64,000 nucleotides of DNA from Verrucomicrobiota bacterium (GTDB taxonomy: Bacteria; Verrucomicrobiota; Kiritimatiellia; JAKQHR01), in assembly GCA_029557905.1 (NCBI GenBank), contig JAKQHR010000072.1, positions 23,109 through 87,108 of the forward strand. Reading direction: 5' to 3'. Shown here in pieces: positions 16,196 to 63,161 of this stretch. Below the pieces are notes generated by a model that saw only the letters and a list, made by a program, of their open reading frames with translations, did not search any database and had not been told where the DNA came from. Position 1 is the stretch's first letter. Each line of letters begins with the position of its first letter. Position numbers and translations under genes: made by a program.

Positions 16196-16340
16196 AATGA
16201 TTCCGTCTCCCGCTGATCCTCTGGAACTACTGTCCACAAGATGCATCAAAAACGGACAGTCTTCAAACCTAATCCGCGAGCATCTCGCGGGATCACCGGG
16301 ACTAAATCTGCCGGACCGCTTCCGCCTGCCGTGATGCAAA

Positions 16341-16364
16341 ATAGTACTAATTTAGTACTATTTA
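16341..16364. promoter_or_regulatory. predicted operator: AT-rich palindrome ATAGTACTA-att-TAGTACTATTTA (11-3-11 with flanks), second copy of the rrf2-promoter motif
   Basis: 21 of 24 positions match the motif at 62466-62489. Perfect inverted repeat AAATAGTACTA/TAGTACTATTT. It lies in the divergent GH13/acd intergenic region. Confidence 0.55.
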
Positions 16365-16486
16365 GATCCGCACGGTGCAGTTTTGCATTTTCCCGCGCGC
16401 GCCCCCTTCATTTCCCCTTTTTTTTCATTTTTCGCGGCCGCAAGTGCCGCCGGGCTGATATTTTCATGAAAATTCGAAAATTCAAG

Positions 16487-16600
16487 GATTTTTGGCCTTT
16501 TTTGACGTTTTTGGGCCGATTTTTGGTCATTTTTTGCATTTTTTGGACGTTTTGGGGCTGTTTTTCGCGTTTTTTTGAGTTTTTTACATGGTATGGCCGC
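16487..16600. repeat. phased T-tract element (about 10 T5-7 tracts at 10-11 bp period; predicted intrinsically curved DNA), copy 1
   Basis: atttttggcc ttttttgacg tttttgggccg atttttggtc attttttgc attttttggacg ttttggggctg tttttcgcg tttttttgag ttttttaca. A core of about 40 bp is nearly identical to the element at 27.3 kb. It is immediately upstream of acd. Confidence 0.7.
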
Positions 16601-16662
16601 CGGGGCAATCGTTGCGTGAAAATAGTTTTTTGTGTATAAAAGAAGGTCAGGAAGTCGGGTGC

Positions 16663-18750
16663 ATGATGCCAAGCGGAAAAACTGCAGAAGGACCGCGTCG
16701 CAAGAACCTGGACGGGCTTTTCAAACCCCGGAGCGTGGCCATGGTCGGGGCGTCAGCCGATCCCCATAAAATCGGCCACCAGATTTTGAGAAATATCGTC
16801 GAAGGCGGTTTTGCCGGAGAGGTGTATCCCGTCAATGCCTGCGCCGAGGCCGTTCTGGGCCTGAAGACTTTTCCTTCCGTTGCGGCCATCCCCCACCCGG
16901 TTGATTTCGCCGTGATTTCCATCCCCGCAACCGCCGTCGCCGCCTGCATGGAGGAATGCGGACAGAAAGGCGTTCAGGCGGTCGCCGTGATCACTTCCGG
17001 ATTCGCGGAGGCGGGCAACATTGAAGAGGAGCACAAGCTCAAGGCGATTGCGGACCGGTACGGCATGGCGCTGGTCGGGCCCAATATTCTCGGCGTGGTC
17101 TATTCCCCCTCCCGGCTCAACGCGACCTTCGGCCCGCGCGACATGGCCAGCGGCGGCACGGCCTTTGTCTCCCAGAGCGGCGCGCTGGCCATCGGCCTGA
17201 TGGGCTGGGCGGTGATGGAGAAGATGGGCATGAGCGCGCTGGTCAGCATCGGCAACAAGGCCGATGTGGATGAGCGGGATCTGATTGAGTACTTCAATCA
17301 TGATGAACACGTGAAGGTGACCCTCGTTTATATGGAAGGCCTGAAGAACGGGCGCGATTTCATGCAGACCAGAATCAGCAAGCCGGTCGTGATGCTGAAA
17401 GTCGGGCGCACGCAGCGCGGCGCCAGGGCCGCGGCCTCGCACACCGGGTCGCTCGCGGGTTCGGATCAGGTCTTTGACGCCGCCTTCCGCCAGCTCGGGA
17501 TGCTCCGCGCGGACACATTCCGCGAGGCGTTCAACTGGGCCCGGGCGCTTGCCCTGCCCCCGATGCCCGGCAGGAAGGTGCTGATCATCACCAATGGCGG
17601 CGGGATCGGCGTCCGCGCCACGGACGAATGCGAGAAGGCGGGGCTGCACCTTCTGGATGATCCCGAATGGCTGGAAGAAACATTCCGGCCCGTCATGCCG
17701 TCCTACGGGAGCACGAAAAATCCAATTGATCTCACCGGCGGGGCCGCGGCGGACAAATACAGCCAGGCCTTCAAGTCCGCGGTGATCTCCGACAAGTTCG
17801 ATGCGCTGCTTGTGCTCTACTGCGAGACGGTGATCACCGACCCGCTGGCCATTGCGCAGGGGGTTTCCCGGGAATATGAGGCCGCAGGCCGCCGCAAGCC
17901 CGTCGTGGCCGCCATGGTCGGCGGAGAACGCTCGCGGCAGGCCATTCATTTCCTGAATCAGCAGGGCGTTCCCGCCTTCACATCCGTGGCCGATGCGGCC
18001 TCATCGCTGAACGCCCTGGCCCAATGGCATGAAATCTCCAGCCGCGAGAAAGATGATCCGGAGTGCTCCCAGGCGCCCCGGGAGGCCGTCAGGATTGTTG
18101 AGCAGGCCCGAAAAGAGGGCCGTTCCGCCCTGCTCGAGCACGAGGCGCGGCAGGTGCTGGAACTCTGCGGCGTTCCCGTGCCGCCCGCGGCTTTCGCGCG
18201 CGATCTGGATGAGGCGAAGCTTAAGGCCGCAGCGCTTTATCCGCTGGCGATGAAGATTGCCTCGCCGCAGATCATTCACAAAAGCGATGCCGGCGGAGTG
18301 GCCGTCAACATCCGGGACGAAAGCGAGCTGGCTGAAAAATACAGCGCCATGATGAAAACCGTTTCGGAGCGCGTCCCGGATGCGCAGATCGAGGGCGTGA
18401 ACCTTGTGCAGATGGCGGAGGGAATCGAATGCGCGGCGGGGCTGAGCAGCGATCCGCAGTTCGGGCCCGTGGTCATGTTCGGGCTGGGCGGCGTGCTGGT
18501 GGAGGCGCTGAAAGACGTGGCCTTCCGGATTGTGCCCTTCGGCCGCGTGGAGGCCGAACGCCTGATTGGCGACATCAAAGCCCGGAACATACTCGACGGA
18601 TTCCGGGGGGCCAGGGCGGACCGGCCCTCGCTGGTGCAAATCCTGTGCGCCATCCAGAAACTGGCGGGTCTTGTGAAGGAAGTGGACATCAACCCGATCC
18701 GCTCAAGTGAAAAAGGCAGTTTCGCCGTGGATGCCCGGATTATTCTCTAG
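16663..18750 (+). CDS. acetate--CoA ligase (ADP-forming), fused alpha/beta subunits (NDP-forming acyl-CoA synthetase family)
   Basis: N-terminal CoA-binding domain (PRSVAMVGASADPHKIGHQILRNI), succinyl-CoA synthetase-like His domain (ASHTGSLAGS) and C-terminal ATP-grasp. The start is set at MMPSGKT (atg at 16663). Confidence 0.75.
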   Translation: MMPSGKTAEGPRRKNLDGLFKPRSVAMVGASADPHKIGHQILRNIVEGGFAGEVYPVNACAEAVLGLKTFPSVAAIPHPVDFAVISIPATAVAACMEECGQKGVQAVAVITSGFAEAGNIEEEHKLKAIADRYGMALVGPNILGVVYSPSRLNATFGPRDMASGGTAFVSQSGALAIGLMGWAVMEKMGMSALVSIGNKADVDERDLIEYFNHDEHVKVTLVYMEGLKNGRDFMQTRISKPVVMLKVGRTQRGARAAASHTGSLAGSDQVFDAAFRQLGMLRADTFREAFNWARALALPPMPGRKVLIITNGGGIGVRATDECEKAGLHLLDDPEWLEETFRPVMPSYGSTKNPIDLTGGAAADKYSQAFKSAVISDKFDALLVLYCETVITDPLAIAQGVSREYEAAGRRKPVVAAMVGGERSRQAIHFLNQQGVPAFTSVADAASSLNALAQWHEISSREKDDPECSQAPREAVRIVEQARKEGRSALLEHEARQVLELCGVPVPPAAFARDLDEAKLKAAALYPLAMKIASPQIIHKSDAGGVAVNIRDESELAEKYSAMMKTVSERVPDAQIEGVNLVQMAEGIECAAGLSSDPQFGPVVMFGLGGVLVEALKDVAFRIVPFGRVEAERLIGDIKARNILDGFRGARADRPSLVQILCAIQKLAGLVKEVDINPIRSSEKGSFAVDARIIL

Positions 18751-19008: not shown

Positions 19009-19437
19009 TCAGGCGGACAGCTTGTCCAGGGCCTTTGAGAGGGCCTGCCAGCAGAGGCCGGCGCATTTGACGCGCACCGGAAAATCACGCACGCTCCTGA
19101 GCACCGCGAGATCCCCCAGAGATTCGTCCGACGGGTCGCACGTCCCCTGCACCATCCCGAGAAATTCCGAAATCATGGCGCGGGCCTCCGAGGGAGTTTT
19201 CCCCAGCACCCGTTCCGTCATCATGGAGCAGGAGGAAGTGCTGATTGCGCATCCGCGCCCGTCGAACCGGATGCTGGAAATCCTGTCGCCCTGCAGTTCA
19301 ACTCGAAGCCGGAAATGATCCCCGCAGGTCGGGTTTTCATCCTCCACGGTGGCCTCTTCATCGCTCACGGGGCCGAAGTTCTGCGGTTTCTTGAAGTGCC
19401 TGAGGATCACTTCACGATAAAGGTCTTCAAAGGCCAT
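19009..19437 (-). CDS. sufU: SUF-type Fe-S cluster assembly sulfur acceptor (SufU/NifU-like)
   Basis: MAFEDLYREVILRHFKKPQNFG...NPTCGD...GRGCAISTSS matches the SufU/IscU family. The start is set at MAFEDLY (Met21 of ORF 19009..19497). Confidence 0.7.
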   Translation of the reverse strand: MAFEDLYREVILRHFKKPQNFGPVSDEEATVEDENPTCGDHFRLRVELQGDRISSIRFDGRGCAISTSSCSMMTERVLGKTPSEARAMISEFLGMVQGTCDPSDESLGDLAVLRSVRDFPVRVKCAGLCWQALSKALDKLSA

Positions 19438-20659
19438 GGAAAAACCTCGCTGTCTTTTCGACGACATCCGCCAGGGCGTCCACTTCGTGCCGGTCATTGT
19501 ACAGGTAAAAACTGGCGCGGCTCAGGGCGGCAAAGCCGTAGCGAACCACGAGAGGCTGAGCGCAGTGGTGACCCGCGCGTATGGCAATGCCCTCCTGGTC
19601 CGCGAACTGGGCCATGTCGTGCGGATGCACGTTTTTCATGTGCCATGCGATCACGGCGCCCCGGTGGGCGGCTCGGCCCACGATCTGGATCCCGGAGAGG
19701 GCGTCCAGACGCTGCAGGGCGTACCGGACGAGTTCCTGTTCATGCTGGAAGATGCGGTCCATCCCCGCGGCTTCGAGATAGTCAATGGCCGCCTTCAGCC
19801 CCGCCGCGCCGGCCACGTTGGGCGTGCCGGCCTCGAACTTGTACGGAACATCGGCCCAGACCGCATCCCGAAGGGCTACGCGATGGATCATGCTGCCGCC
19901 TGTTTGATACGGACGCATCCGGTCCAGCAGTTCACGCTTCGCGTACAGCACGCCAATGCCCATGGGGCCCAGCATTTTGTGGCCGGAGAAGGCAAGGAAA
20001 TCGCAGTCCAGATCGGCCACATCCACCTTGAAATGCGGAAGGCTCTGCGCGGCATCTATGAGCACCCGCGCCCCGGCTGAATGCGCGGCGGCAATGCACT
20101 GCCTGACCGGATTGATGGTTCCCAGCACGTTGGACATGTGGGTCATCGCCAGTATCTTCACTTTCGGAGACAGCATCTGCTGAAAGGCGTCCATGTCGAG
20201 CGCGCCGTCCTCCCGGCCGGGGATAAAACAGAGTTCCGCGCCGGTCTGCCGGGCGAGCTGCTGCCAGGGAAGCAGATTGCTGTGGTGCTCCATCACTGTC
20301 AGGAGAATCTGATCTCCCGGCCGGAGCGCCGCCGCGCCGTAAGCTGACGCCGCCAGATTAATGCTTTCCGTGGCGCCACGCGTGAACACCACCTCCTGCG
20401 GAGAACCGGCGCCGATGAAATCCGCCACCCGCGCGCGGGCGGATTCAAGGATTTCGGTCGCCTCCTCGGACAGCTGATGGAATCCGCGGTGCACGTTGGC
20501 GTTGTGGTTCCGATAATAGTCGCACACGGCCTCGATCACGCATTCCGGCTTCTGCGTGGTGGCCGCGTTGTCGAGATAAACCAGGCGCTTCCCCCCGCGC
20601 ATTGTGCGGGCAAGAATCGGGAAATCCCTCCGGATCCGCTCTGTGTTCAGCGCATTCAT
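19427..20659 (-). CDS. sufS: cysteine desulfurase (SufS type)
   Basis: YLDNAATTQKP...FSGHKMLGPMGIGVLY (PLP lysine)...RAGHHCAQP (active-site Cys) is the class II NifS/SufS signature. The start is set at [16 protein letters not shown] and overlaps the lolD stop. Confidence 0.85.
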   Translation of the reverse strand: MNALNTERIRRDFPILARTMRGGKRLVYLDNAATTQKPECVIEAVCDYYRNHNANVHRGFHQLSEEATEILESARARVADFIGAGSPQEVVFTRGATESINLAASAYGAAALRPGDQILLTVMEHHSNLLPWQQLARQTGAELCFIPGREDGALDMDAFQQMLSPKVKILAMTHMSNVLGTINPVRQCIAAAHSAGARVLIDAAQSLPHFKVDVADLDCDFLAFSGHKMLGPMGIGVLYAKRELLDRMRPYQTGGSMIHRVALRDAVWADVPYKFEAGTPNVAGAAGLKAAIDYLEAAGMDRIFQHEQELVRYALQRLDALSGIQIVGRAAHRGAVIAWHMKNVHPHDMAQFADQEGIAIRAGHHCAQPLVVRYGFAALSRASFYLYNDRHEVDALADVVEKTARFFHGL

Positions 20660-21357
20660 TCCTGATCGGTTTCCAGCCGTCCGTCGCGGAGAAACAGGAC
20701 GCGGTCGCACTGGTCGCAAAGCGCGCGGTTGTGCGAAACCAGCAGGAGCGTGACCTGATGCTCCTCCACCAGCCGGAAGAGGCATTGAAGCACAGTGTCC
20801 CCCGTCTTTGAATCCAGGTTACCGGTGGGTTCATCGCAGAAAAGAATTTCCGGGTTGTTCATCATCGCGCGCGCCACCGCGGTGCGCTGCTGCTCTCCGC
20901 CGGATAGTTCCGTCGGGAGATGATGCAGGCGTCCGGAAAGTCCCACGCTGGAGAGCAGGCTTTCTGCGCGGTCTCGCGTTGCACGGCTTTTCGGCTGCAG
21001 TCTTCGCGGGAGGGCCATCGCCGGGAGCATGACATTTTCCAGCACGGTCAGCTCGGGCAGAAGATAATAGGCCTGGAAAATAAAGCCGGTCTGGCTTGCG
21101 CGCAGCGCCGTCCGCCGGGCCGGGGACTGACTGTACACATCCGTCCCGTCAAACATCACGCGGCCGGCGGTTGGAGATTCCAGGCCTCCGAGCACATGCA
21201 GCAGTGTGGTTTTCCCGGCGCCGCTTGCGCCCATGATGGCCGTGCGCTCGCCGCGACCGAGCGACAGTGAAACCCCCTTCAGGACAGGGATCACCACGGC
21301 GCCCATGACGAAGCTCTTGTCAATGGCATCCGCCTGAAGCAGTGGACGGTCATTCAT
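20656..21357 (-). CDS. lolD: ABC transporter ATP-binding protein, lipoprotein-releasing LolD-like
   Basis: Walker [10 protein letters not shown], signature LSGGEQQR, Walker [13 protein letters not shown]. Paired with an FtsX-like permease in the lolC/E-lolD order. Confidence 0.65.
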
Positions 21358-22573
21358 AGTGCAGGGCCCTCGCAGGATCCAGACGGGCGGCGCGCCACGC
21401 CGGCACCAGCCCCGCCAGCGTGCAGATGATCACCACCACCAGGGCCACCATCGCCACATCCGTCAGCGATGTCGTGGACGGGATTTCGCTCAGATGATAG
21501 AGATCCTTCGGAAGCAGTTCCATGCCCAGCCGCCGGTTCATCCAGCTCATCAAATCGTTCCGGTAATAAAGAACAAGCAGTCCGGCGGCCATGCCGGACA
21601 GCGTTCCGAGCACGCCGCAGATCCATCCCTGCCAGAGGAAAACCCGCATGATGCCGCCGGAGCTGAAGCCGAGAGCCTTGAGCAGGCCGACCTCCTTTGT
21701 CTTCTGCACAGCCAGCGTGATCAGGGTGTTGGTGATGCCGAATGCCGCGACCACGGATATGATGATGAGCAGGAAGAACATCATGTTCTTTTCCACCTTC
21801 AGCGCCGAAAAGAGCTGCCGGTTCATGTCCATCCAGGTCTGAACCTCATATTCGGGACCGAGATCCACCTGCATTCGGGCGGCAATGGATGGCGCCCTGA
21901 AGGGATCCCCGGTCATCACCTGAATGCCGTGCACCCCGCGCTCCATGCTGTACATGCTTCGCGCCGTGTCCAGCGAAGTGAGCATGAATCCCATGTCAAA
22001 ATCCCACATGCCCAGCTCAAATATCCCGCTCACCGTCAGCTCCTCCGGGAGCCGCAGTTCGTCGGCCACAGTGAAATTTTTCGGTGAGTAAACCAGAATC
22101 CGGTCGCCAAGGCCCGCGCCGACGCGCGCCGCGAGATCGCGGCCGAGAATCACTTCGTCATCTTCGACCGAAAAGACGCCTTCCGCCATGTGGGCGGGGA
22201 TCTGACTGATGCGCCTCTCCATCTCGGGGTCAATGCCGCGCATGACAGGAGTGTAAACGTGATCCTCGTGCTGGATAAACACGAGCCCCTGCACAAAGGG
22301 CGCGGCACCCTTTACTCCGGGAACCTCCGCAAGCCGCTCCATGACAGCATCCTCGTCCTCCATGATCCCCCAGCCCGTCACGGTGAGGTGCGCGTTGAAT
22401 CCAAGAATCTTGTCGCGCCACATGTCGTCGAACCCGCTCATCACGGACAGGACAATGACCAGCACCGCCACGCCCAGCAGCACCCCCAGCACGGAAATCA
22501 GCGTCACAACGGAAACAAACGTGCGCTTGGGGCGGAGATACTTGAGAGCCAGGAACAGCGAAAACGGAAGCTT
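21350..22573 (-). CDS. ABC transporter permease, LolC/LolE (FtsX-like) family
   Basis: MKLPFSLFLALKYLRPKR N-terminus, large periplasmic loop and C-terminal FtsX-type TM bundle. The start is set at Met21 of ORF 21350..22633. Confidence 0.7.
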   Translation of the reverse strand, partial: KLPFSLFLALKYLRPKRTFVSVVTLISVLGVLLGVAVLVIVLSVMSGFDDMWRDKILGFNAHLTVTGWGIMEDEDAVMERLAEVPGVKGAAPFVQGLVFIQHEDHVYTPVMRGIDPEMERRISQIPAHMAEGVFSVEDDEVILGRDLAARVGAGLGDRILVYSPKNFTVADELRLPEELTVSGIFELGMWDFDMGFMLTSLDTARSMYSMERGVHGIQVMTGDPFRAPSIAARMQVDLGPEYEVQTWMDMNRQLFSALKVEKNMMFFLLIIISVVAAFGITNTLITLAVQKTKEVGLLKALGFSSGGIMRVFLWQGWICGVLGTLSGMAAGLLVLYYRNDLMSWMNRRLGMELLPKDLYHLSEIPSTTSLTDVAMVALVVVIICTLAGLVPAWRAARLDPARALHYE

Positions 22574-22575
22574 CA

Positions 22576-24021
22576 TCAGGCATTCCTGGGTTTCAGATGG
22601 GGAAACAGAATCACATCGCGGATGGTTTCGCATCCCGACAGAATCAGCATCAGACGGTCAATGCCAATGCCCATGCCTCCGGCGGGCGGCATACCGTGCT
22701 CCAGAGCGGTCAGGAAATCCTGGTCCATCTTCTGCACATCTTCGCCGGCCTGTTCCGCAAGGCGGCGGCGCTGCTCCAGCGGGTCATTCAACTCGGTGTA
22801 GCCGGGGGCGATTTCGCACCCGCCGATTTCCAGCTCAAACACATCCACCACCGAAGGATCATCCGCGCAGGTTTTCGCCAGCGGGACCAGTTCCGTGGGC
22901 AGGCGGGTGACAAACGTCGGGTTCATCAGGGTTTTTTCTATAACCTTCTCATACACTTCATGGGTCACTTCAGCCATGCCCCACGCCGGGTCCAGTTCGC
23001 ATCCGAGCTGCTCCGCGCGTTTGCGGGCTTCATCCACCGGCAAATCAAACCAGTCGGCGCCCGCGCGCTCCTTCACCAGATCCCTGTACGCGGCCGTGCG
23101 CCAGGGCGGCGTCAGGTCAATCCGCCGGTCCCCTTCTCCCACAACCAGCGTCCCGAACACCTTCTGCGCCACATGCGTCACGAGGTCCTGCACCAGAGAC
23201 TTCATGCTGTTCACATCGCCGAAGGCCTCGTAGATCTCCAGCATGGTGAATTCGGGGTTATGCGTCCGCGAAAGCCCTTCGTTGCGGAAATTGCGGTTCA
23301 TCTCGAAAACCTTGTCGAACCCGCCCACCAGCAGCCGCTTCAAATAGAGTTCGGGCGCAATGCGCAGATACATGTCTGTCTTCAGGGCGTTGTAGTGGGT
23401 CACGAAGGGCTTGGCGGCGGCGCCGCCGGCCATGACCTGCAGCATCGGTGTTTCCACTTCGGAAAAACCGCGCTCCGCCAGGAATGTTCTGATCTCGCGC
23501 ACCATGGCCACGCGCTTGTTGAACACCTCGCGCACTTCGGGATTGGCAATCAGGTCGAGGTAGCGCTGGCGGTACCGGATTTCCGTATCCTGCAGGCCGT
23601 GCCATTTTTCAGGCAGCGGCAGCAGGGCCTTGGAAAGAAGCTCCCATTTCTGGACCTTGATGGTCTTTTCGCCGGTGCGGGTGACAAACAGTTCGCCTTC
23701 AACGCCAAGCTGATCACCAATGTCAAGAATCTTGAAGGCCGCATAGGCGTCCTCGCCGACCTCATCCTTTTTCACATAAATCTGCAGCCGGCTGCTTCCG
23801 TCGCTGATATGCGCGAAAGTGGACTTGCCCATGTCGCGGCGCGCCAGGAGGCGGCCGGCCGCGCGCACCGGTTTATGTTCTTCAAAATCCGCGGCGATAT
23901 CCGACAGCCGGCCGGTGCGGGAATAGGCTTTCCCAAAGGGCTGATATCCCATCGCCTTAAGCTTTTCCATGTTCTCGAGGCGCTGCGCCCGCACTTCGCT
24001 GCTGTTTTCACTGTTTTCCAT
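22576..24021 (-). CDS. lysS: lysine--tRNA ligase (class II)
   Basis: Anticodon-binding OB fold followed by class II motifs (FRNEG, GGMGIGIDRL). Full-length match to LysS. Confidence 0.9.
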   Translation of the reverse strand: MENSENSSEVRAQRLENMEKLKAMGYQPFGKAYSRTGRLSDIAADFEEHKPVRAAGRLLARRDMGKSTFAHISDGSSRLQIYVKKDEVGEDAYAAFKILDIGDQLGVEGELFVTRTGEKTIKVQKWELLSKALLPLPEKWHGLQDTEIRYRQRYLDLIANPEVREVFNKRVAMVREIRTFLAERGFSEVETPMLQVMAGGAAAKPFVTHYNALKTDMYLRIAPELYLKRLLVGGFDKVFEMNRNFRNEGLSRTHNPEFTMLEIYEAFGDVNSMKSLVQDLVTHVAQKVFGTLVVGEGDRRIDLTPPWRTAAYRDLVKERAGADWFDLPVDEARKRAEQLGCELDPAWGMAEVTHEVYEKVIEKTLMNPTFVTRLPTELVPLAKTCADDPSVVDVFELEIGGCEIAPGYTELNDPLEQRRRLAEQAGEDVQKMDQDFLTALEHGMPPAGGMGIGIDRLMLILSGCETIRDVILFPHLKPRNA

Positions 24022-27257: not shown

Positions 27258-27305
27258 TTCTAAATGGATTTGGCGCCTGTCACAGGGCGTTTTGTCAGAA
27301 AACAC

Positions 27306-27423
27306 GATTTTTCACCGTTTTGGGCATTTTCGGGCATTTTTTGACGTTTTTAGGCCGTTTTTGACCATTTTTTGGCCTTTTAGGGCCATTTTTCATCATT
27401 TTTGAGGCCTTTTCGGCCTGCCA
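27306..27423. repeat. phased T-tract element (about 11 T4-6 tracts at 10-11 bp period), copy 2
   Basis: atttttcaccg ttttgggca ttttcgggca ttttttgacg tttttaggccg tttttgacca ttttttggcc ttttagggcca tttttcatca tttttgaggcc ttttcggcc. It shares ttttttgacgtttttRggccg...tttttgRNcatttttt with the 16.5 kb copy. Confidence 0.7.
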
Positions 27424-30253: not shown

Positions 30254-32782
30254 ATGAACGAAAAGTATCCGTTTTACGAGATCGAACCCAGATGGCAGCA
30301 GTACTGGGAAGACCATAAACTGTTTGAAGTGGACACCGCACAGTCCTCCGGCAAGTACTACTGCCTGATGATGTTCCCCTATCCCTCCGGGACCCTCCAT
30401 GTGGGGCACGGCCGCAACTACATCATTGGCGACGCGGTGACCCGTTACAAAAAAATGCAGGGGCTGAATGTGCTGACCCCCATGGGCTGGGACGCCTTCG
30501 GGCTTCCGGCCGAAAATGCGGCCATCAAGACCGGCACCCATCCTCGCGTCAGCACACTGAACAACATCTCGGTGATCAAAAAACAGCTCCGCGACTGGGG
30601 CTGCTGCTACGACTGGAACCGCGAAGTCGCCTCCTGCCTGCCGGACTACTATAAATGGACACAGTGGCTGTTCCTTAAATTCTACGAACGGGGTCTGGCC
30701 TACAAGACAAAGGCGCCGGTCAACTGGTGCCCGTCCTGCGCCACAGTGCTGGCCAACGAGCAGGTTGTGGAGGGCAAGTGCGAGCGATGCGAATCAGAGG
30801 TGGTGCCGCGCGACCTTGAACAGTGGTTCTTCAAGATCACAGACTATGCCCAGCGGCTTCTGGATGACCTTTCCAAGCTGGACGGCTGGCCGGAGCGGGT
30901 CAAGACCATGCAGAAGAACTGGATCGGCCGCAGCGAGGGCACTCAGGTGAACTTCAGGCTGGTGCCGCGCGATGACGGGAAACCGGATCAAAAGACGGAT
31001 ATCCCCTGCTTCACGACGCGCGTGGACACCATCTACGGCTGCACCTACATGGTGCTGGCCCCCGAATACCGCGAACTGGCCGCAATGATTGAAGGCCTGC
31101 CCGAGGAAAAAGCCGTGCAGGCTTATGTCCGGCAGGCGGAACTGACCTCCAAGATTGACCGCGCGGCCGACACGAACGAAAAAACGGGCGTGTTCACCGG
31201 CCGTTATGTGATCAATCCCTACAACGGCGAAAAAGTTCCCCTGTGGGTCGCCGATTATGTTCTTATGGAATACGGCACCGGCGCGGTCATGGCCGTTCCG
31301 GCTCACGACACCCGCGACTGGGCCTTCGCGAAAAAGTACGGTCTCGAAATCCGCATTTCGATTCAGAATCCGAAAGGCACACTGAAGCTGGCGGAGATGA
31401 AGGAGGCCTATGTCGAGGACGGCATCACGGCGGACTCCGGCCCCTTCACGGGCCAGCCGAATCGCGATGCGATCCGGGAGATGACCGAATACGCTGCGCA
31501 GAAGGGCTTCGGAAAAGCCACGATCCATTACAAGCTGCGCGACTGGCTGATCAGCCGCCAGCGCTACTGGGGCGCGCCCATCCCGATGATCTACTGCGAT
31601 TCCTGCGGCATGGTGCCGGTGCCGGAAAAAGATCTTCCCGTGCTTCTGCCGGACGATGTGGAGTTCCGGCCTCACGGGGAATCCCCGCTGCGCAGCAGTG
31701 CGACCTTCATGAACGTGAAGTGCCCCAAATGCGGGATACCCGCGCGCCGGGAGAGCGACACCATGGACACCTTCGTGGATTCAAGCTGGTATTTCCTTCG
31801 TTATTTGAACGCGCGGGATGACCGGCAGGCCGTTGACAAAAAGATCTGCTCGGAATGGATGCCGGTGGATCAGTACATCGGGGGAATCGAGCACGCCATC
31901 CTGCACCTGATGTATGCGCGCTTCTTCACAAAGGCCATGTGCGATATCGGCCTGATCACGTTTGACGAGCCCTTCGCCCATCTGTTCACACAGGGCATGA
32001 TCTGCAAGAAAAGCGACAAGGACGGACAGCTCTACAAGATGTCCAAATCCAAGGGCAATGTGGTCAGTCCCGCCGAGCTGATCCGCGAATACGGCGCCGA
32101 CACTGTGCGGCTGTATACATTATTCATCGGCCCGCCCGAAAAGGATGCCGAATGGAACGATGCCGGCGTCGAGGGAGCCTACCGCTTCCTGAAGCGCATC
32201 TGGAAAAAGGTTTATGACCATCGTGACCTGCTGATTGCGGCAAAGGCGCTGGAATCCGACTTGAATGCCATGGAAGAACCGGAGCGCAATCTGTACCGCA
32301 AGATGCATGAGTCCATTCAGCGCATCACGCGCGACCTGGAGGGGGCTTTTCATTTCAACACGGCCATCGCTCAGATCATGGAGCTGATGAACGCGCTCGA
32401 TCAATTGTCCGTGTCAGCGGACAGTTCGGAAAACTGCCGCGCAGTTTTCCGTGAAACGGTGGAAACCATTCTGATCCTGATTTCGCCTTTCGCTCCGCAT
32501 ATCGCGGAGGAACTGTGGGCGGAACTGGGACATCAGGGCGGGATTCTGAAGGCCGCGTGGCCGAAAGTCAACGAGCTGGCCCTGCAGCGCGACGAGATTG
32601 AGCTGGTCATCCAGGTCAACGGCAAGCTGCGCGGCAAGATAACCGTTCCGGCAAACTCCAGCAGCAAGGATGTTGAAGCCGCCGCCCTGGCATCGCCTGA
32701 CGCCCTGCGGTGGATAGAGGGAAAAACGGTGCGCAAGGTCATCGTTGTCCCCGGGAAACTGATCAATATTGCAGCATCATGA
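30254..32782 (+). CDS. leuS: leucine--tRNA ligase
   Basis: HVGHGRNY (HIGH), KMSKSKGN (KMSKS), CP1 editing domain. 842 aa full length. Confidence 0.9.
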
Positions 32783-58668: not shown

Positions 58669-58830
58669 TCAGTCGGCCGGCTCAAAATCGCTCTTGGGAA
58701 CGCCGCATTCAGGACAGACCCAGGTGTCGGGAATGTCTTCAAACGCTGTGCCGGGAGCAACCCCGTTATCGGGATCTCCGGCCGCCGGGTCATAAATGTA
58801 GCCGCACACGGTGCAAACATACTTCTGCAT
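58669..58830 (-). CDS. rubredoxin (53 aa); absent from the ORF track because it is under 60 aa
   Basis: Reverse-strand translation [53 protein letters not shown] shows two CxxCG knuckles and the conserved YxYDP and W residues. The ORF 58653..58904 listed in the track is in a different frame. Confidence 0.8.
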
Positions 58831-58906: not shown

Positions 58907-59263
58907 TTATCCTTCGTCTGAAGCCGCCGACGGCTGGCGGATCATGATCAGCAGCATCTTGAACCGCTTTTCGGCCCAGAGAGAATGAGGCACATCCGCC
59001 GGCATGATCACCATTTGGCCGGACCGGGCAGTTAGAGGGCTCCCCCCTATATTGATCACCGCTTCTCCGTCCAGTATCTGAACAGCCGCATCATAGGGGG
59101 ATGTGTGCTCGCTCAGCCCCTGTCCCGCATCGAAGGCAAACAGAGTGAGAGACCCCACCGGCTTGTTCATCAGAGTCTTGCTGACAACCGAACCGGAGGC
59201 ATAGGCGACCTCCTGCACCAGATCGAGCGGCCGGCCTTTGTAATCCGTGCCGCCCATGATCAC
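58907..59263 (-). CDS. cupin-domain protein
   Basis: Small beta-barrel pattern (GLSEHTSPYDAAVQILDGEAVINIGG...GQMVIMPADVPHSL) typical of RmlC-like cupins. Confidence 0.55.
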   Translation of the reverse strand: MIMGGTDYKGRPLDLVQEVAYASGSVVSKTLMNKPVGSLTLFAFDAGQGLSEHTSPYDAAVQILDGEAVINIGGSPLTARSGQMVIMPADVPHSLWAEKRFKMLLIMIRQPSAASDEG

Positions 59264-59547
59264 TCAGCGGGAGCGGCCGCTTCTTCAGGAGCAGGCGGGG
59301 CATCGGGAAGTTTCGGGGCACAACCGGCCTTCTTCATCATGCAGCATCCGGCTGCTTTATCCCCTGACTTCTTCATCGCTTTGCAGGCCGCCGCTTCCTC
59401 CCCGGACGTCATCGCCTTGCAGGCGGCAGCTTCATCGCCGGACTCTTTTGCCTTTTCCGCCTTTTCGGCGCAGCAGGGTCCGCCCGCATAGGAAACAAAC
59501 GCCGCAGCCGTGACCGCCATTATCGCAACCATCAATTTAAACTTCAT
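59260..59547 (-). CDS. small secreted Cys-rich repeat protein (possible metal-binding)
   Basis: Signal peptide MKFKLMVAIMAVTAAAFVSYA, then CC AEKAEKAKESGDEAAACKAM / TSGEEAAACKAM / KKSGDKAAGCCMM repeats. The underlying DNA has about 36-bp tandem repeats at 59375-59450. The start is set at the internal Met of ORF 59260..59607. Confidence 0.45.
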   Translation of the reverse strand: MKFKLMVAIMAVTAAAFVSYAGGPCCAEKAEKAKESGDEAAACKAMTSGEEAAACKAMKKSGDKAAGCCMMKKAGCAPKLPDAPPAPEEAAAPAE

Positions 59548-59603
59548 CACACAATCCTTTCTTCCCTTGTGGGAGGGTAAGCATACGCGCAATCCGGGAG
59601 AAT

Positions 59604-60383
59604 TCAAATCGCCTTCTGCGAAAGAACATCTCCGGTCAGACTCATGACCGCCTCTTCAATGACCAGATCTCTGCGGCCGCATCTTTCCGCGGCAGCCCGA
59701 ACCATCATGGTGAGCCCCCCGCAGCAGGGCACCTGCATCCGGACCACAATCACTTTGGGGATGGTGGGCTCTGAAAATATGTCGGCCATTTTTTCGACAT
59801 ATCCCTCCGTGCGGTCCAGTTTGGGGCAGGCCACAACGATCCCCCTGCCCCGGAGGAAACGCCAGTGTATGTCCGCCGAAGCGATCGGCCCGCAGGTGCT
59901 CATCACCACCAGTTCCCGGTTTTTGAAGAACGGCGCGCCGGGCTGCACCAGATGAAGCTGAACAGGCCACTGCTGCAGTTCCGACGGGATGGCCGTCGGC
60001 ATTTGCGCATTTGCGGCAACGGCCTGCTTCGCGGCCGGGGCTTCCGGCACACGCATGCGCATGCCGGGACAACCGCCGGACGGAGCCAGCCCATGCTTCT
60101 TCCCGGCCTCATCAAAGCGGGCCACGGCAGCAGGGCCCTCGGTTGCCGCCACATGTTCGCGGGTGGCGGCGAAGTCGAAGGCGTCCGCCTCGCGCTCTTC
60201 AATGGTCAGAGCTCCGGTCGGACACTCTCCAATGCAGTCTCCGAATCCGTCGCAGAACTGCTCCTTGACCAGCTTCGCCTTGCCGTTGACGATCTTCAAT
60301 GCGCCCTCTGCGCAGGATGTGACACATTCGCCGCATCCGTTGCAGAGGTCCTCATTGATCCTGATAATCTTTCGCTTCGCCAT
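59604..60383 (-). CDS. 4Fe-4S ferredoxin-domain protein, probable electron-transfer partner of Hcp
   Basis: N-terminal double CxxCxxCxxxC (CNGCGECVTSC ... CDGFGDCIGEC). C-terminal extension of unknown function. Its ATG abuts the hcp stop. Confidence 0.6.
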   Translation of the reverse strand: MAKRKIIRINEDLCNGCGECVTSCAEGALKIVNGKAKLVKEQFCDGFGDCIGECPTGALTIEEREADAFDFAATREHVAATEGPAAVARFDEAGKKHGLAPSGGCPGMRMRVPEAPAAKQAVAANAQMPTAIPSELQQWPVQLHLVQPGAPFFKNRELVVMSTCGPIASADIHWRFLRGRGIVVACPKLDRTEGYVEKMADIFSEPTIPKVIVVRMQVPCCGGLTMMVRAAAERCGRRDLVIEEAVMSLTGDVLSQKAI

Positions 60384-60384
60384 A

Positions 60385-62034
60385 TCACTTCCCGGCCATC
60401 ATGGCCTCGACATCCGCCTGCACCTCGCCGGTGGGCTTGATGTCAAAATTGTCCACCAGCACCTTGGCCACCGCGGGCGAGAGAAACGCCGGCAGCGTCG
60501 GCCCCAGCCGGATTCCCTTCACCCCCAGATGCAGCAGCGCCAGCAGCACGGCCACGGCCTTCTGCTCGTACCAGGCGATGTCGAAAGACAACGGAAGATC
60601 GTTGATGGATTCCAGTCCGAAGGCCTCCTTCAGTTTCAGCGCGATGACCGCCAGCGAATAGCTGTCGTTGCACTGCCCGGCATCCAGAACACGCGGGATC
60701 CCGCCGATATCGCCAAGGTCCAGCTTGTTGTAGCGGTATTTCGCGCAGCCCGCGGTCAAAATGATCGTGTCCTTCGGCAGGGCCTCGGCCACTTCGGTGA
60801 AATAGTTCCGGGATTTCTGGCGCCCGTCGCATCCGGCCATCACCACAAAACGTTTGATCGCTCCGGACTTTACGGCCTCCACCACCTTGCCGGCGACAGC
60901 CATCACCTGATTATGAGCGAAGCCGCCGACGATTTCGCCGTTTTCCAGCTCCTGCGGAGGCGCGCATTTCTTTGCCTGCGCGATGAGCGGGGAGAAGTCC
61001 TTCTGTTTTCGCGGTTTCCGGTCAGGAATATGCTTCGTGCCCGGCCAGCCGGCCATGCCTGTCGTGTAGAAACGATCCTTGTAGCTGTCCTTCACCGGAA
61101 TGATGCAGTTGGTCGTCAGCAGGATCGGCCCGTTGAATGAGGCGAATTCCTTGTCCTGAAGCCACCAGCTTCCGCCGTAGTTTCCGGCCAGATGCTTGTA
61201 TTTCTTGAAGGCCGGATAGTAATGGCACGGAAGCATTTCGCCGTGTGTATAGACATCCACGCCCGTGCCCTCGGTCTGCTGCAGGAGCTCGTCCATATCC
61301 TTCAGGTCGTGGCCGGAAATCAGGATGCCCGGATTCCTGCGCACCCCGGTTGACACTTTCGTGATCTCCGGACTGCCGTAGGTCTCCGTGTTGGCCTTAT
61401 CGAGAAGCGCCATGGTCGTGACGGCAATTTCGCCCGCCTTCAGCACCATGCCCACCATCTCGTCCACGCTGAGTTTCTGCGTGGTTGAAATCAGTCCGTC
61501 CACGATGAACCGGTAAATGGCATCATCCTCGTACCCCAGCACCAGCGCATGATCAGCGTAGGCTGCAATGCCCTTGAGGCCGATGATCAGAAGCTGCTGC
61601 AGCGACCGCACATCCTCGTTCGGCTCGGAGGGAATGCCGACCAGAAGAGCCTTCACCTGAAGGTCTTCCCCCTTTTTCGGAGCCCAGGTCGCTGCGTCAT
61701 GCAGTTTCTGTGCCCACGTCGCGTCTTTCGCCTCGCATTCCTTGCGAAGCGTGTCGCGCTGAGCAACAGCCTCCAAAATGAGGCGGCTGATGACCGCATC
61801 ATCAAAATTGGCGTTGGTGATCGTGGCGAACAGCCCGCGGATAATTGTCCGGCCGACCTCCCGGTCATAGCGGCCGAGTTCATCGGCCTTTTTGCCGGCA
61901 ATGGCCAGTCCTTTCAGAGTGTGGATCAGAAGATCCTGCAGATTCGCCGTGGGCTCCTGTTTCCCGCATACCCCGCGGACGGTGCAACCCTGGTTTTTCG
62001 CGGTTTCCTGACACTGGAAGCAGAACATGCTCAT
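60385..62034 (-). CDS. hcp: hybrid cluster protein (hydroxylamine reductase)
   Basis: [26 protein letters not shown]-terminal Cys motif and full-length similarity to the prismane/Hcp family (549 aa). Confidence 0.9.
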
Positions 62035-62450
62035 GACTTTCCCTTTCTCTTTTTTGGTTGTTTGTAGATTTCAGCTAAATTGGTTTTGTTGAAAAAATCG
62101 TTCAGGCGCTTCTGCAGAATGCAGACGGAGCCCTTCATCGGGCATTTCCCGCTGTACGGGCACGCATAGCCCTTCCTGTTGCAGACGTTCATGTACACCG
62201 GACCCTGAATGACTTCAACCACCCGGCCCAGACTGATCCTGCGCGAGGGCATCGCCAGCAGATATCCCCCCTGCACGCCGCGAACAGCCTTGACGATTCC
62301 GTCATTCGCCAGCTTCTTCATTATTTTGCGGATGGATGCCAGCGGCGCCTTGCAGTCGCGCGCGAGGGCCATCGTGTCCGTGCACTCCCCCTGGTCCAGC
62401 AGATGCAGCGCCCGCAGTGCATAATCAGTCTCTCTTTTCAGTATTTCCAT
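62031..62450 (-). CDS. Rrf2-family transcriptional regulator (NsrR/IscR-like, Cys-containing)
   Basis: N-terminal w[14 protein letters not shown]...[17 protein letters not shown] and C-terminal Cys ligands (C..C.....C). Directly upstream of hcp with a 4-nt overlap. Confidence 0.8.
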
Positions 62451-62465
62451 GGATGCTCCTTTAAT

Positions 62466-62489
62466 ATAGTACTAAAATAGTACTATTTA
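62466..62489. promoter_or_regulatory. predicted Rrf2 operator: ATAGTACTA-aaa-TAGTACTAT (9-3-9 palindrome) 16-39 bp upstream of the rrf2 start
   Basis: Perfect inverted arms whose half-site TAGTACTA is itself palindromic. AT-rich in a 62% GC background. Matches the site at 16341-16364. Confidence 0.6.
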
Positions 62490-62522
62490 AACGCGATGTC
62501 AACCGGGGCCTTGAAATTTGTT

Positions 62523-62894
62523 TCAGGATATCTTTTTCGGCCACGCCCTGAGGATGCTCATGACCTCCCGGACCCAGGTGCAGACGCACTGGGCCGGACA
62601 CCGCCCGTCCTGTCCCAGATGCGCGCAGTAGCCCGGGCAGTCCGGTCCCCCGTACCGGCATTCCTGCCAGACCGGCCCGTCGTACAAATCCCGGAATTCC
62701 TCCACGGAAACGGCGAGCGTGGTGGTGCACTGCATGATGTGATTGAAAAGGAAATAGCCCAGATGCCGCCCCTCAAACATCGGCTGATATCCCAGAAACT
62801 CCACACGGGAATCGGCCAGGAACGAATCCCTGTCCGGCCAGCTGGTGCCGCACGTCGTGCAGTTCTTGAAACAATGGTCCTTCGCGCTCTTCAC
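62523..62894 (-). CDS. Cys-rich small protein (123 aa), hypothetical
   Basis: CFKNCTTC (Cx3Cx2C) near the N-terminus and CPGYC...CPAQCVC at the C-terminus. Preferred over the overlapping plus-strand ORF 62496..63188, which reads through the repeat array. Confidence 0.4.
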   Translation of the reverse strand: MKSAKDHCFKNCTTCGTSWPDRDSFLADSRVEFLGYQPMFEGRHLGYFLFNHIMQCTTTLAVSVEEFRDLYDGPVWQECRYGGPDCPGYCAHLGQDGRCPAQCVCTWVREVMSILRAWPKKIS

Positions 62895-62965: not shown

Positions 62966-63057
62966 GCTCATGACCCGAAAAGTTCCAGTCATTGGAAGTT
63001 TTCAGACCAAAAGTTCCAATCATTGGAACTTTTCAGACAGAAAGTTCCAGTCATTGG
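62966..63057. repeat. REP-like array, 3 tandem copies (period 31 bp) of AAAAGTTCCAGTCATTGGAACTTTT (inverse orientation of the 8.1 kb array)
   Basis: Copies start near 62968, 62999 and 63030. The core is the reverse complement of the 8094-8182 units. It lies between two minus-strand genes. Confidence 0.8.
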
Positions 63058-63161
63058 AAGTTTTGCGCAAGGGCGGAATTTCAGCAGGACGCGGACTGCC
63101 ACAGGGCCCGAACACGGCCGCATATTCGCGAAGGAGCGGCGGATGTATTCGCGCGGATATC

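Follow-up and report, generated by a model that had tools for sequence, protein, structure and literature searches.

The rrf2-hcp locus and its upstream palindrome

The window, that is, the whole stretch of 64,000 nucleotides analyzed here, comes from an uncultured Kiritimatiellia bacterium that has been recovered in many digester-type metagenomes. It contains an operon headed by a gene for an Rrf2-family regulator (rrf2), with a perfect palindrome just upstream of that gene. The features are listed below in the direction of transcription:

62523-62894, minus strand: 123-aa Cys-rich ORF directly upstream of the candidate operator and promoter (conserved in 4/4 Kiritimatiellia species)
62497-62502, minus strand: predicted -35 hexamer TTGACA of the rrf2 promoter (consensus scan; conserved at the same distance in orthologues)
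62474-62479, minus strand: predicted -10 hexamer TATTTT, the A/T centre of the palindrome (consensus scan; orthologues have their -10 here)
62466-62486, no strand: candidate operator O, perfect palindrome ATAGTACTA-aaa-TAGTACTAT (direct reading, pattern search and orthologous position)
62456-62461, minus strand: Shine-Dalgarno sequence AAGGAG, 5 nt before the ATG (direct reading; conserved in Kiritimatiellia orthologues)
62031-62450, minus strand: rrf2, 139-aa Rrf2-family regulator with Cys90/Cys97/Cys103 and Asp9 (PF02082, 85 bits)
60385-62034, minus strand: hcp, hybrid cluster protein/hydroxylamine reductase (NF003658, 834 bits)
59604-60383, minus strand: hcp-associated ferredoxin (frdX-like), 2x4Fe-4S N-terminus and AF_0155 domain (domain search)
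59260-59607, minus strand: 115-aa Cys-rich ORF with 4-nt overlaps with its neighbours (no family match)
58907-59263, minus strand: cupin-domain protein (domain search; in the operon across phyla)
58669-58830, minus strand: rubredoxin (domain search)

The hcp start codon overlaps the rrf2 stop codon (ATGA), and a gene for a PEP-utilising enzyme comes after rubredoxin, also on the minus strand. The initial annotation is corrected here with respect to strand, as rrf2, hcp and all genes involved are encoded on the minus strand. The 123-aa ORF at 62523-62894 has no match in Pfam or NCBIfam, and an Rfam search of the whole window returned one tRNA and nothing else.

On the plus strand, positions 62466-62486 read ATAGTACTAAAATAGTACTAT, a perfect 9-3-9 inverted repeat of 21 bp that can also be read as 7-7-7 (ATAGTAC-N7-GTACTAT) and whose half-site TAGTACTA is its own reverse complement. 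Direct reading and a pattern search both recovered this 9-3-9 element, which had been proposed before as an operator spanning 62466-62489; the symmetry extends to 62486, but the last three bases (TTA) are flank outside it. The distance to the rrf2 start codon had been given correctly: with the A of the ATG at 62450, the palindrome lies 16-36 nt upstream. When the 64-kb window was searched for TAGTACTA-N3-TAGTACTA with up to three mismatches, exactly two matches were obtained, the site at 62466 and another at 16341, against 0.00 expected from 100 dinucleotide shuffles. Perfect 9-3-9 palindromes of any sequence number four, compared with 0.28 expected per shuffled window; apart from the two copies just named, they are a GC-rich hairpin (32429) and one unit of a tandem repeat (63011). 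A lone 9-3-9 palindrome is thus not very rare, and what makes the element significant is that 18 identical bases occur twice and that the site is conserved in other genomes. A search of the window with ATAGKAC-N7-GTMCTAT (up to three mismatches) found only the two perfect sites, against 1.5 matches expected by chance; there are no weaker copies, so that additional members of a regulon could not be detected within the 64 kb.

Three other elements of the window were recorded in passing. The palindrome at 32429-32449 (GAAAACTGCCGCGCAGTTTTC, perfect 9-3-9) is probably a terminator hairpin. Between a ygaP-like gene and the 123-aa ORF, positions 62978-63064 hold 2.8 copies of a 31-nt tandem repeat (AAAAGTTCCAGTCATTGGAAGTTTTCAGACA), each unit of which contains an 8-5-8 palindrome (AAGTTCCA-N5-TGGAACTT) at a spacing of three helical turns, so that the array resembles a triple operator for another regulator. 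A stretch 76% identical to it occurs in L052, and assemblies break at the repeat; an apparent difference in copy number in L007 was rejected as an assembly gap of Ns. Finally, cysteine desulfurase and NifU_N genes end a string of lysS, LolCE-like permease and ABC ATPase genes on the minus strand (19009-24021), which is not a classical suf/isc operon and has neither an Rrf2 gene nor the site.

The encoded regulator belongs to the Rrf2 family by PF02082 (85.2 bits against a cut-off of 30, residues 4-130) and falls marginally under the threshold of TIGR00738 (72.7 versus 73.3). It carries the cysteine pattern of the Fe-S subgroup (CX5-7CX5C towards the C-terminus), here Cys90, Cys97 and Cys103 (CX6CX5C), which is conserved in Kiritimatiellia and Brocadiia members; Asp9 and these three cysteines are invariant in the subfamily alignment.

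A predicted promoter with its -10 element inside the palindrome

The palindrome sits in the 72-nt gap between the 123-aa ORF and rrf2. A consensus scan predicted a sigma-70-type promoter on the minus strand, TTGACA(62502-62497)-17-TATTTT(62479-62474), which matches the consensus at 10/12 positions; the same scan gave TTTAAA-17-TATATT as a weaker alternative. In gene orientation, the left arm of the palindrome fills the spacer and the right arm lies over the expected transcription start. The initial annotation had the site occluding both the -10 and the -35 region. Judged against the predicted promoter, the palindrome covers the -10 together with the spacer and the probable start, but the -35 is outside it. 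The overlap expected of an occluding operator is present nonetheless, with the predicted -10 inside the palindrome and this geometry kept in 30 loci. Neither HcpR-type nor NsrR-type motifs occur in the rrf2 promoter, and no inverted repeat of the TTGAC-N4-GTCAA type was found in 62450-62560.

Conservation of the site upstream of orthologous rrf2 genes

The 30 orthologous loci considered comprise four Kiritimatiellia species, 19 Brocadiia/Planctomycetota genomes and seven metagenome contigs, and thus at least two phyla. Upstream of rrf2, all of them keep TTGACA-N10-palindrome with a central -10, which varies as TAATTT, TAAATT, TATTTT, TATATT or TGnTATAcT behind a 17-nt spacer. In every case rrf2 heads an hcp/flavodiiron/ferredoxin/cupin operon. 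Operon content is alike across phyla (hcp, Fer4/AF_0155 ferredoxin, cupin, flavodiiron protein, HD-domain protein and rubredoxin), and a homologue of the ferredoxin encoded at 59604-60383 is found in all orthologous operons.

In the three other Kiritimatiellia species, the Rrf2 protein is 84, 74 and 70% identical to that of the window. All four species retain the 123-aa ORF, the gap, an invariant GTTGAC (-35), the 17-nt spacer, a TAwwTT centre and the palindrome. The site in L014, ATAGGACTAtttTAGTCCTAT, has G in the left arm and C in the right arm, so that the inverted repeat is kept and the half-site is not self-complementary. The operators of L011 and L015 combine a good left arm with a degenerate right arm (three mismatches).

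A scan of 185,579 species genomes based on the subfamily alignment identified the 19 Brocadiia/Planctomycetota orthologues, whose Rrf2 proteins share 34-43% identity with that of the window. Brocadiia sites follow cTTGACA-N7-ATAGGAsTGrTATAsTCCTAT, with an extended -10 (TGnTATAcT) at the centre and a 17-nt spacer, and the operon order is rrf2, HD-domain Cys-rich protein, Fer4/AF_0155 ferredoxin, flavodiiron protein, hcp and cupin. The protein encoded right after rrf2 in these operons has a Cys-rich N-terminus joined to the HD domain and stands in place of the 123-aa ORF upstream. Most Brocadiia orthologues (L016-L034) have tandem operators 24 nt apart, at about -57 and -33 from the rrf2 ATG, the first (O1) overlying the -10 and the second (O2) located in the leader; in L020, a third good site (ACAGGAGCCTAAAAGTCCTAT) is located at +740, before the next gene of the operon.

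Blind scanning of metagenomes with the exact pattern TAGKACTA-N3-TAGTMCTA yielded at least 120 loci. Among the 120 loci listed, 36 have an Rrf2 ORF, detected with the subfamily HMM, whose 5' end abuts the site; the same HMM detected no Rrf2 ORF at any other position in these loci. At least seven are clear orthologues of the window gene (E 1e-31 to 1e-36), followed by cupin/hcp/ferredoxin or HD-protein genes. These seven have TTGACA-N10-ATAGGACTATATTAGTCCTAT, exactly the geometry of the window, in genomes of 43-63% G+C.

The consensus of the 30 orthologous sites is ATAGGAC-N7-GTCCTAT. Complementary bases are found at pair 4/18 in 22 sites, at 5/17 in 27 and at 6/16 in 29, and pair 7/15 varies among C:G (12), G:C (5) and T:A (2). 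Symmetric base changes, as read from these alignments, thus preserve the inverted repeat across orthologues. Pair 5/17 is G:C in 26/30 sites and T:A only in the window, and the self-complementary half-site therefore arose incidentally, through a single symmetric substitution within this lineage. The earlier description of the arms as palindromic at two scales is accordingly true of the window half-site, but 26/30 orthologous sites have GGAC/GTCC, and this lineage-specific G→T/C→A variant is unlikely to matter for function.

We also considered whether the recognition helix (K versus Q, RKIMK/RKIMQ) had co-evolved with the G→T substitution in the operator. This idea was rejected, as suf-linked sites mix GTAC and GGAC arms freely, so that this operator position looks tolerant.

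A second perfect copy of the palindrome and phased A/T-tract arrays

The matching site mentioned in the initial annotation was confirmed by direct reading as a second copy with identical arms. Two features are involved:

16341-16361, no strand: second perfect copy (site 2), ATAGTACTA-att-TAGTACTAT, reading ATAGTACTAATTTAGTACTAT (direct reading and pattern search)
16381-16630, plus strand: phased T-tract array beside site 2, an associated feature

Given its identical arms, site 2 very probably binds the same protein as the rrf2 operator. It lies in a 467-nt gap between a gene for a GH13-like protein of 1504 aa (minus strand, ATG at ~16195, 146 nt from the site) and the gene for an ADP-forming acetyl-CoA synthetase (acd; plus strand, ATG at 16663, ~300 nt from the site). 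A consensus scan found no sigma-70-like promoter at site 2 on either strand, and visual inspection showed CACCGT and CCTGCC as the hexamers located 10 nt away from the palindrome. Eleven other contigs of the species carry site 2 without change; the spacer is mostly invariant as well, and since a divergent strain with 12 substitutions per 470 nt would be expected to show only ~0.5 in the site, this within-species invariance is uninformative. In the sister species (L155/L156, Acd 85% identical), no palindrome was found between the GH13-like gene and acd with four mismatches allowed. Three extra genes are inserted there, and similarity upstream of the GH13-like gene stops at about the position of site 2 (by eye).

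Two further elements were seen in the gap. A candidate acd promoter, TTGCGT-17-TATAAA, is present at 16617-16645, just downstream of the T-tract array and ~270 nt from site 2, and is conserved with the sister species (TTGCGC-17-TATAAA, L155). A GC-rich hairpin at 16274-16290 on the minus strand (CCGCGAGATGCTCGCGG), between site 2 and the GH13-like gene, is terminator-like with a poor T-tail and is absent at the corresponding place in the sister species.

The array beside site 2 is one of a family of arrays with phased T/A tracts that are found between genes in this Kiritimatiellia lineage. They are built from 8-12 units of ~10-11 nt (roughly GGCCATTTTTTGRCGTTTTTGG) and are probably intrinsically bent DNA. 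The window has two of them (16381-16630 and 27290-27414), and others were found in L155 (3077-3198 and 5822-5964), L015 (1945-2112), L066 (6848-7048 and 7370-7512) and L123 (6065-6295 and 10034-10243). The sister species also has the array that lies upstream of acd.

Besides the window, perfect ATAGTACTA-N3-TAGTACTAT copies occur in three metagenome contigs (L066, L087 and L123), whose tetranucleotide composition correlates with that of the window at r = 0.953-0.962, like that of the window's own strains. In L066 and L123 the palindrome abuts an A-tract array belonging to this family, and a gene follows 135-250 nt further on (for an HNH protein and hisF, respectively); in L087 the A-rich flank is weaker. 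Placed in the same orientation as L066 and L123, site 2 points to the GH13-like gene. The palindrome thus abuts an array in 3/4 extra copies (rough p about 0.01, with arrays taken as about a tenth of intergenic DNA), which is suggestive of an association. One bold reading of these copies is that perfect duplicates of the Rrf2 operator, each fused to a phased A-tract array, have come to occupy at least four other loci, forming a portable cassette of bent DNA and an operator with a built-in -10, and that the change from GGAC to GTAC marks co-evolution of regulator and regulon. We regard this reading as rather unlikely; if it were true, the GH13-like enzyme or acetyl-CoA synthetase, hisF and the HNH protein would come under an Fe-S/NO-sensing repressor.

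A model of negative autoregulation and its alternatives

We consider it likely, from the sequence comparisons above, that the palindrome is the operator of the adjacent Rrf2 protein and represses that protein's own promoter. A site directly upstream of hcp-type rrf2 genes across phyla is a signature of autoregulation, and the autoregulation suggested in the initial annotation gains support from the predicted promoter over the site, the conservation at 30 loci and the abutting Rrf2 ORFs at 36/120 of the metagenome loci listed. In this model, a holo-[Fe-S] Rrf2 dimer would bind both arms (ATAGTAC/GTACTAT) and lie over the -10 and the probable start. Because the -10 forms the A/T centre and the probable start falls under the right arm, the bound dimer would keep RNA polymerase off the promoter, and rrf2-hcp-ferredoxin-(115 aa)-cupin-rubredoxin would be held low. 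Once the cluster is damaged or missing (nitric oxide, oxidants, or shortage of Fe-S or iron), the protein would leave the DNA and the operon would be transcribed. As rrf2 is the first gene of the operon, its product would be made as well; fresh holo-protein would then close the loop, making it negatively autoregulated.

With regard to the signal, the gene content (Hcp, flavodiiron protein and rubredoxin) favours NO and/or O2 stress, and genes of this kind belong to known nitrosative-stress regulons of NsrR/HcpR (PMC1274295). To name NO as the specific signal would be a tentative assignment at most, read from gene content only, and the operator family together with the feoAB sites described below keeps Fe-S or iron status in play. 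Counting against the model, the right arm of the operator is degenerate in L011 and L015, and the second perfect site has no recognisable promoter and has unrelated neighbours, which is a misfit with a simple stress regulon.

It might be argued that the site is an operator for another Rrf2 protein, an IscR/SUF-type paralogue encoded elsewhere in the genome, with hcp reporting Fe-S demand and the adjacent Rrf2 binding something else. TAGKACTA-N3-TAGTMCTA does precede at least 20 SUF/cysteine-desulfurase-linked Rrf2 genes in metagenomes, the motif is also found before feoAB (L036/L097), and its core equals that of IscR type 1. However, 30/30 hcp-type loci, from two phyla with very different G+C, have the site directly upstream of the hcp-type rrf2. 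Moreover, no second Rrf2 gene was found within the 64-kb window, and its cysteine desulfurase/NifU genes (19-20.8 kb) lack the operator motif. We therefore consider such a paralogue unlikely as the cognate regulator.

Site 2 raises another possibility, namely that the palindrome is part of an intergenic cassette of this lineage, with the phased A-tract array, that has a structural or nucleoid role, its identity as an rrf2 operator being secondary. All four perfect copies outside rrf2 are beside A/T-tract regions (site 2, L066 and L123; L087 more weakly), tetranucleotide composition groups the three contigs with the lineage of the window, and the neighbouring genes (GH13-like, HNH and hisF) are functionally unrelated. 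Nevertheless, the rrf2 copy has no array and is positionally orthologous to operators in species without the GTAC variant, and arrays without palindromes exist (27290-27414 in the window and two in L155). A structural role could thus explain site 2 but not the rrf2 site, for which it is quite improbable.

Direct autoregulation could also be positive, with Rrf2 activating from 62466-62486 instead of repressing. Some Rrf2 proteins do activate, for example IscR at type-2 sites. Yet activator sites normally lie at or upstream of the -35, and a dimer centred on the -10 would be sterically incompatible with the RNA polymerase open complex. The second site downstream of the start in Brocadiia is a repressor layout as well, and activation is thus very improbable here.

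Least probable of all, to the point of being hardly tenable, is an RNA hairpin that acts in read-through from the 123-aa gene by attenuation or by masking the rrf2 ribosome-binding site: the RNA folds at -11.5 kcal/mol (z = -3.8), its extended stem comes within a few nt of AAGGAG and no terminator was found between the 123-aa ORF and rrf2, but a U-tail is absent, the sequence itself (ATAGGA...TCCTAT) is conserved beyond pairing, the loop is retained as a -10 box whose distance to a conserved TTGACA is always 17 nt, the site persists in Brocadiia where the upstream gene is different or divergent, and a transcript from the predicted promoter would be without the left arm.

Repression by the adjacent Rrf2 thus remains our preferred reading. 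Autoregulated Rrf2 repressors with palindromic operators over promoters are textbook knowledge (IscR, NsrR and RsrR), and the hcp-linked operator reveals no new principle. What is new is an Rrf2 subfamily of the PVC superphylum that is linked to hcp and has a defined consensus as well as a layout that places the -10 inside the operator. Our literature search found no paper joining TAGTCCTA with Rrf2 or Rrf2 with Kiritimatiellia, nor one describing an hcp-linked Rrf2 subfamily or tying Rrf2 to the ATAGGAC-N7-GTCCTAT motif or to Kiritimatiellia/Planctomycetota. Transcriptional control in Kiritimatiellia and anammox-related Planctomycetota is essentially unstudied, and a regulator, an operator and a promoter can now be putatively assigned to the hcp/flavodiiron/rubredoxin stress operons of both groups. 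These assignments may be used for regulon annotation in MAGs, and the protein offers a tractable case of signal divergence within Rrf2 with DNA specificity kept.

Comparison with known regulators

The cut-offs of all named NCBIfam Rrf2 equivalogs were missed widely by the window protein and by all eight subfamily members tested, with TIGR02944 ranking best, followed by IscR, RirA and NsrR. As the protein falls under every named subfamily threshold, an effector is not transferable from any of them.

IscR (E. coli and P. aeruginosa) provides a close parallel at the DNA level. Its fourth [2Fe-2S] ligand is His107, which probably corresponds to Lys106 here, whereas the three cysteines align (both judged against E. 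coli IscR). Like the proposed regulator, IscR is an Fe-S Rrf2 protein that represses its own operon from palindromic sites over RNA polymerase elements: the holo-protein binds type-1 sites overlapping the iscR promoter, which leads to repression (PMC3899308, where type-2 sites are mentioned as well). The central 11-13 bp, GACTA-www-TAGTC, are the core of the IscR type-1 consensus ATASYYGACTRWWWYAGTCRRSTAT (PMC3899308). The window site matches this consensus at 16/25 positions and the L014 site at 18/25, the core agreeing and the flanks not; the outer positions are off consensus, and the window site has T for the core G. The scores for IscR are low (TIGR02010, 53.4 versus 207.55; NF008110, 38.7 versus 275), and rrf2 heads an hcp/ferredoxin/cupin/rubredoxin operon here instead of isc/suf.

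The best-scoring named family is the SUF regulator TIGR02944 ("suf_reg_Xantho"), with 70.5 bits under a cut-off of 110.65; no suf genes are adjacent here. Metagenome Rrf2 genes before sufB/cysteine desulfurase carry TAGKACTA-N3-TAGTMCTA with a -10-like centre directly upstream, and most other motif matches among the metagenome loci listed are such suf-linked Rrf2 genes, with the site a few nt before the start codon. The subfamily HMM separates the hcp-linked proteins (E 1e-31 to 1e-36) from the suf-linked ones (E 1e-18 to 1e-25).

Two side observations concern the wider motif class. In two short metagenome contigs (L036, 472-492; L097, 276-296), TTGACA-N10-ATAGGACTATTTTAGTCCTAT precedes feoA-feoB, which hints that regulators of this class may also control ferrous iron uptake. 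In L090 (7637-9349, flipped coordinates), the Rrf2 gene is followed by a gene for a SufB homologue with ~90 aa more than usual, and the insertion resembles an intein/homing-endonuclease segment.

NsrR is similar in the probable cluster ligands. Among solved structures, the sole full-length alignment was to ScNsrR (5N07, E 1e-6), with weak overall similarity, and Asp9 and Cys90/97/103 align with Asp8 and Cys93/99/105 of that protein, in which the [4Fe-4S] ligands are three Cys and Asp8 of the other subunit (PMC5411485). NsrR is likewise an Rrf2 repressor of nitrosative-stress genes with a ~19-23-bp palindromic operator over the promoter, and hcp-hcr is part of the enterobacterial NsrR regulon (PMC1274295). 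The two differ in equivalog score (NF008240, 39.2 bits against a cut-off of 182) and in motif, which is gATGyAT-N5-ATrCATc for NsrR (PMC1274295) and ATAGKAC-N7-GTMCTAT here. HcpR controls hcp and the associated ferredoxin (hcp-frdX) in anaerobic bacteria (PMC1274295). It is, however, an activator of the CRP/FNR family with the motif TTGAC-N4-GTCAA or TGTGA-N6-TCACA, whereas the regulator here is an Rrf2 protein, so that HcpR is a functional analogue only.

Judged from these sequence features, the hcp-linked subfamily is sister to the IscR/SUF-type regulators in predicted DNA specificity, NsrR-like in its putative ligands and analogous to NsrR/HcpR in the genes that it heads. An operator core of the IscR type is thus paired in this subfamily with cluster ligands of the NsrR type and a regulon like that of NsrR/HcpR.
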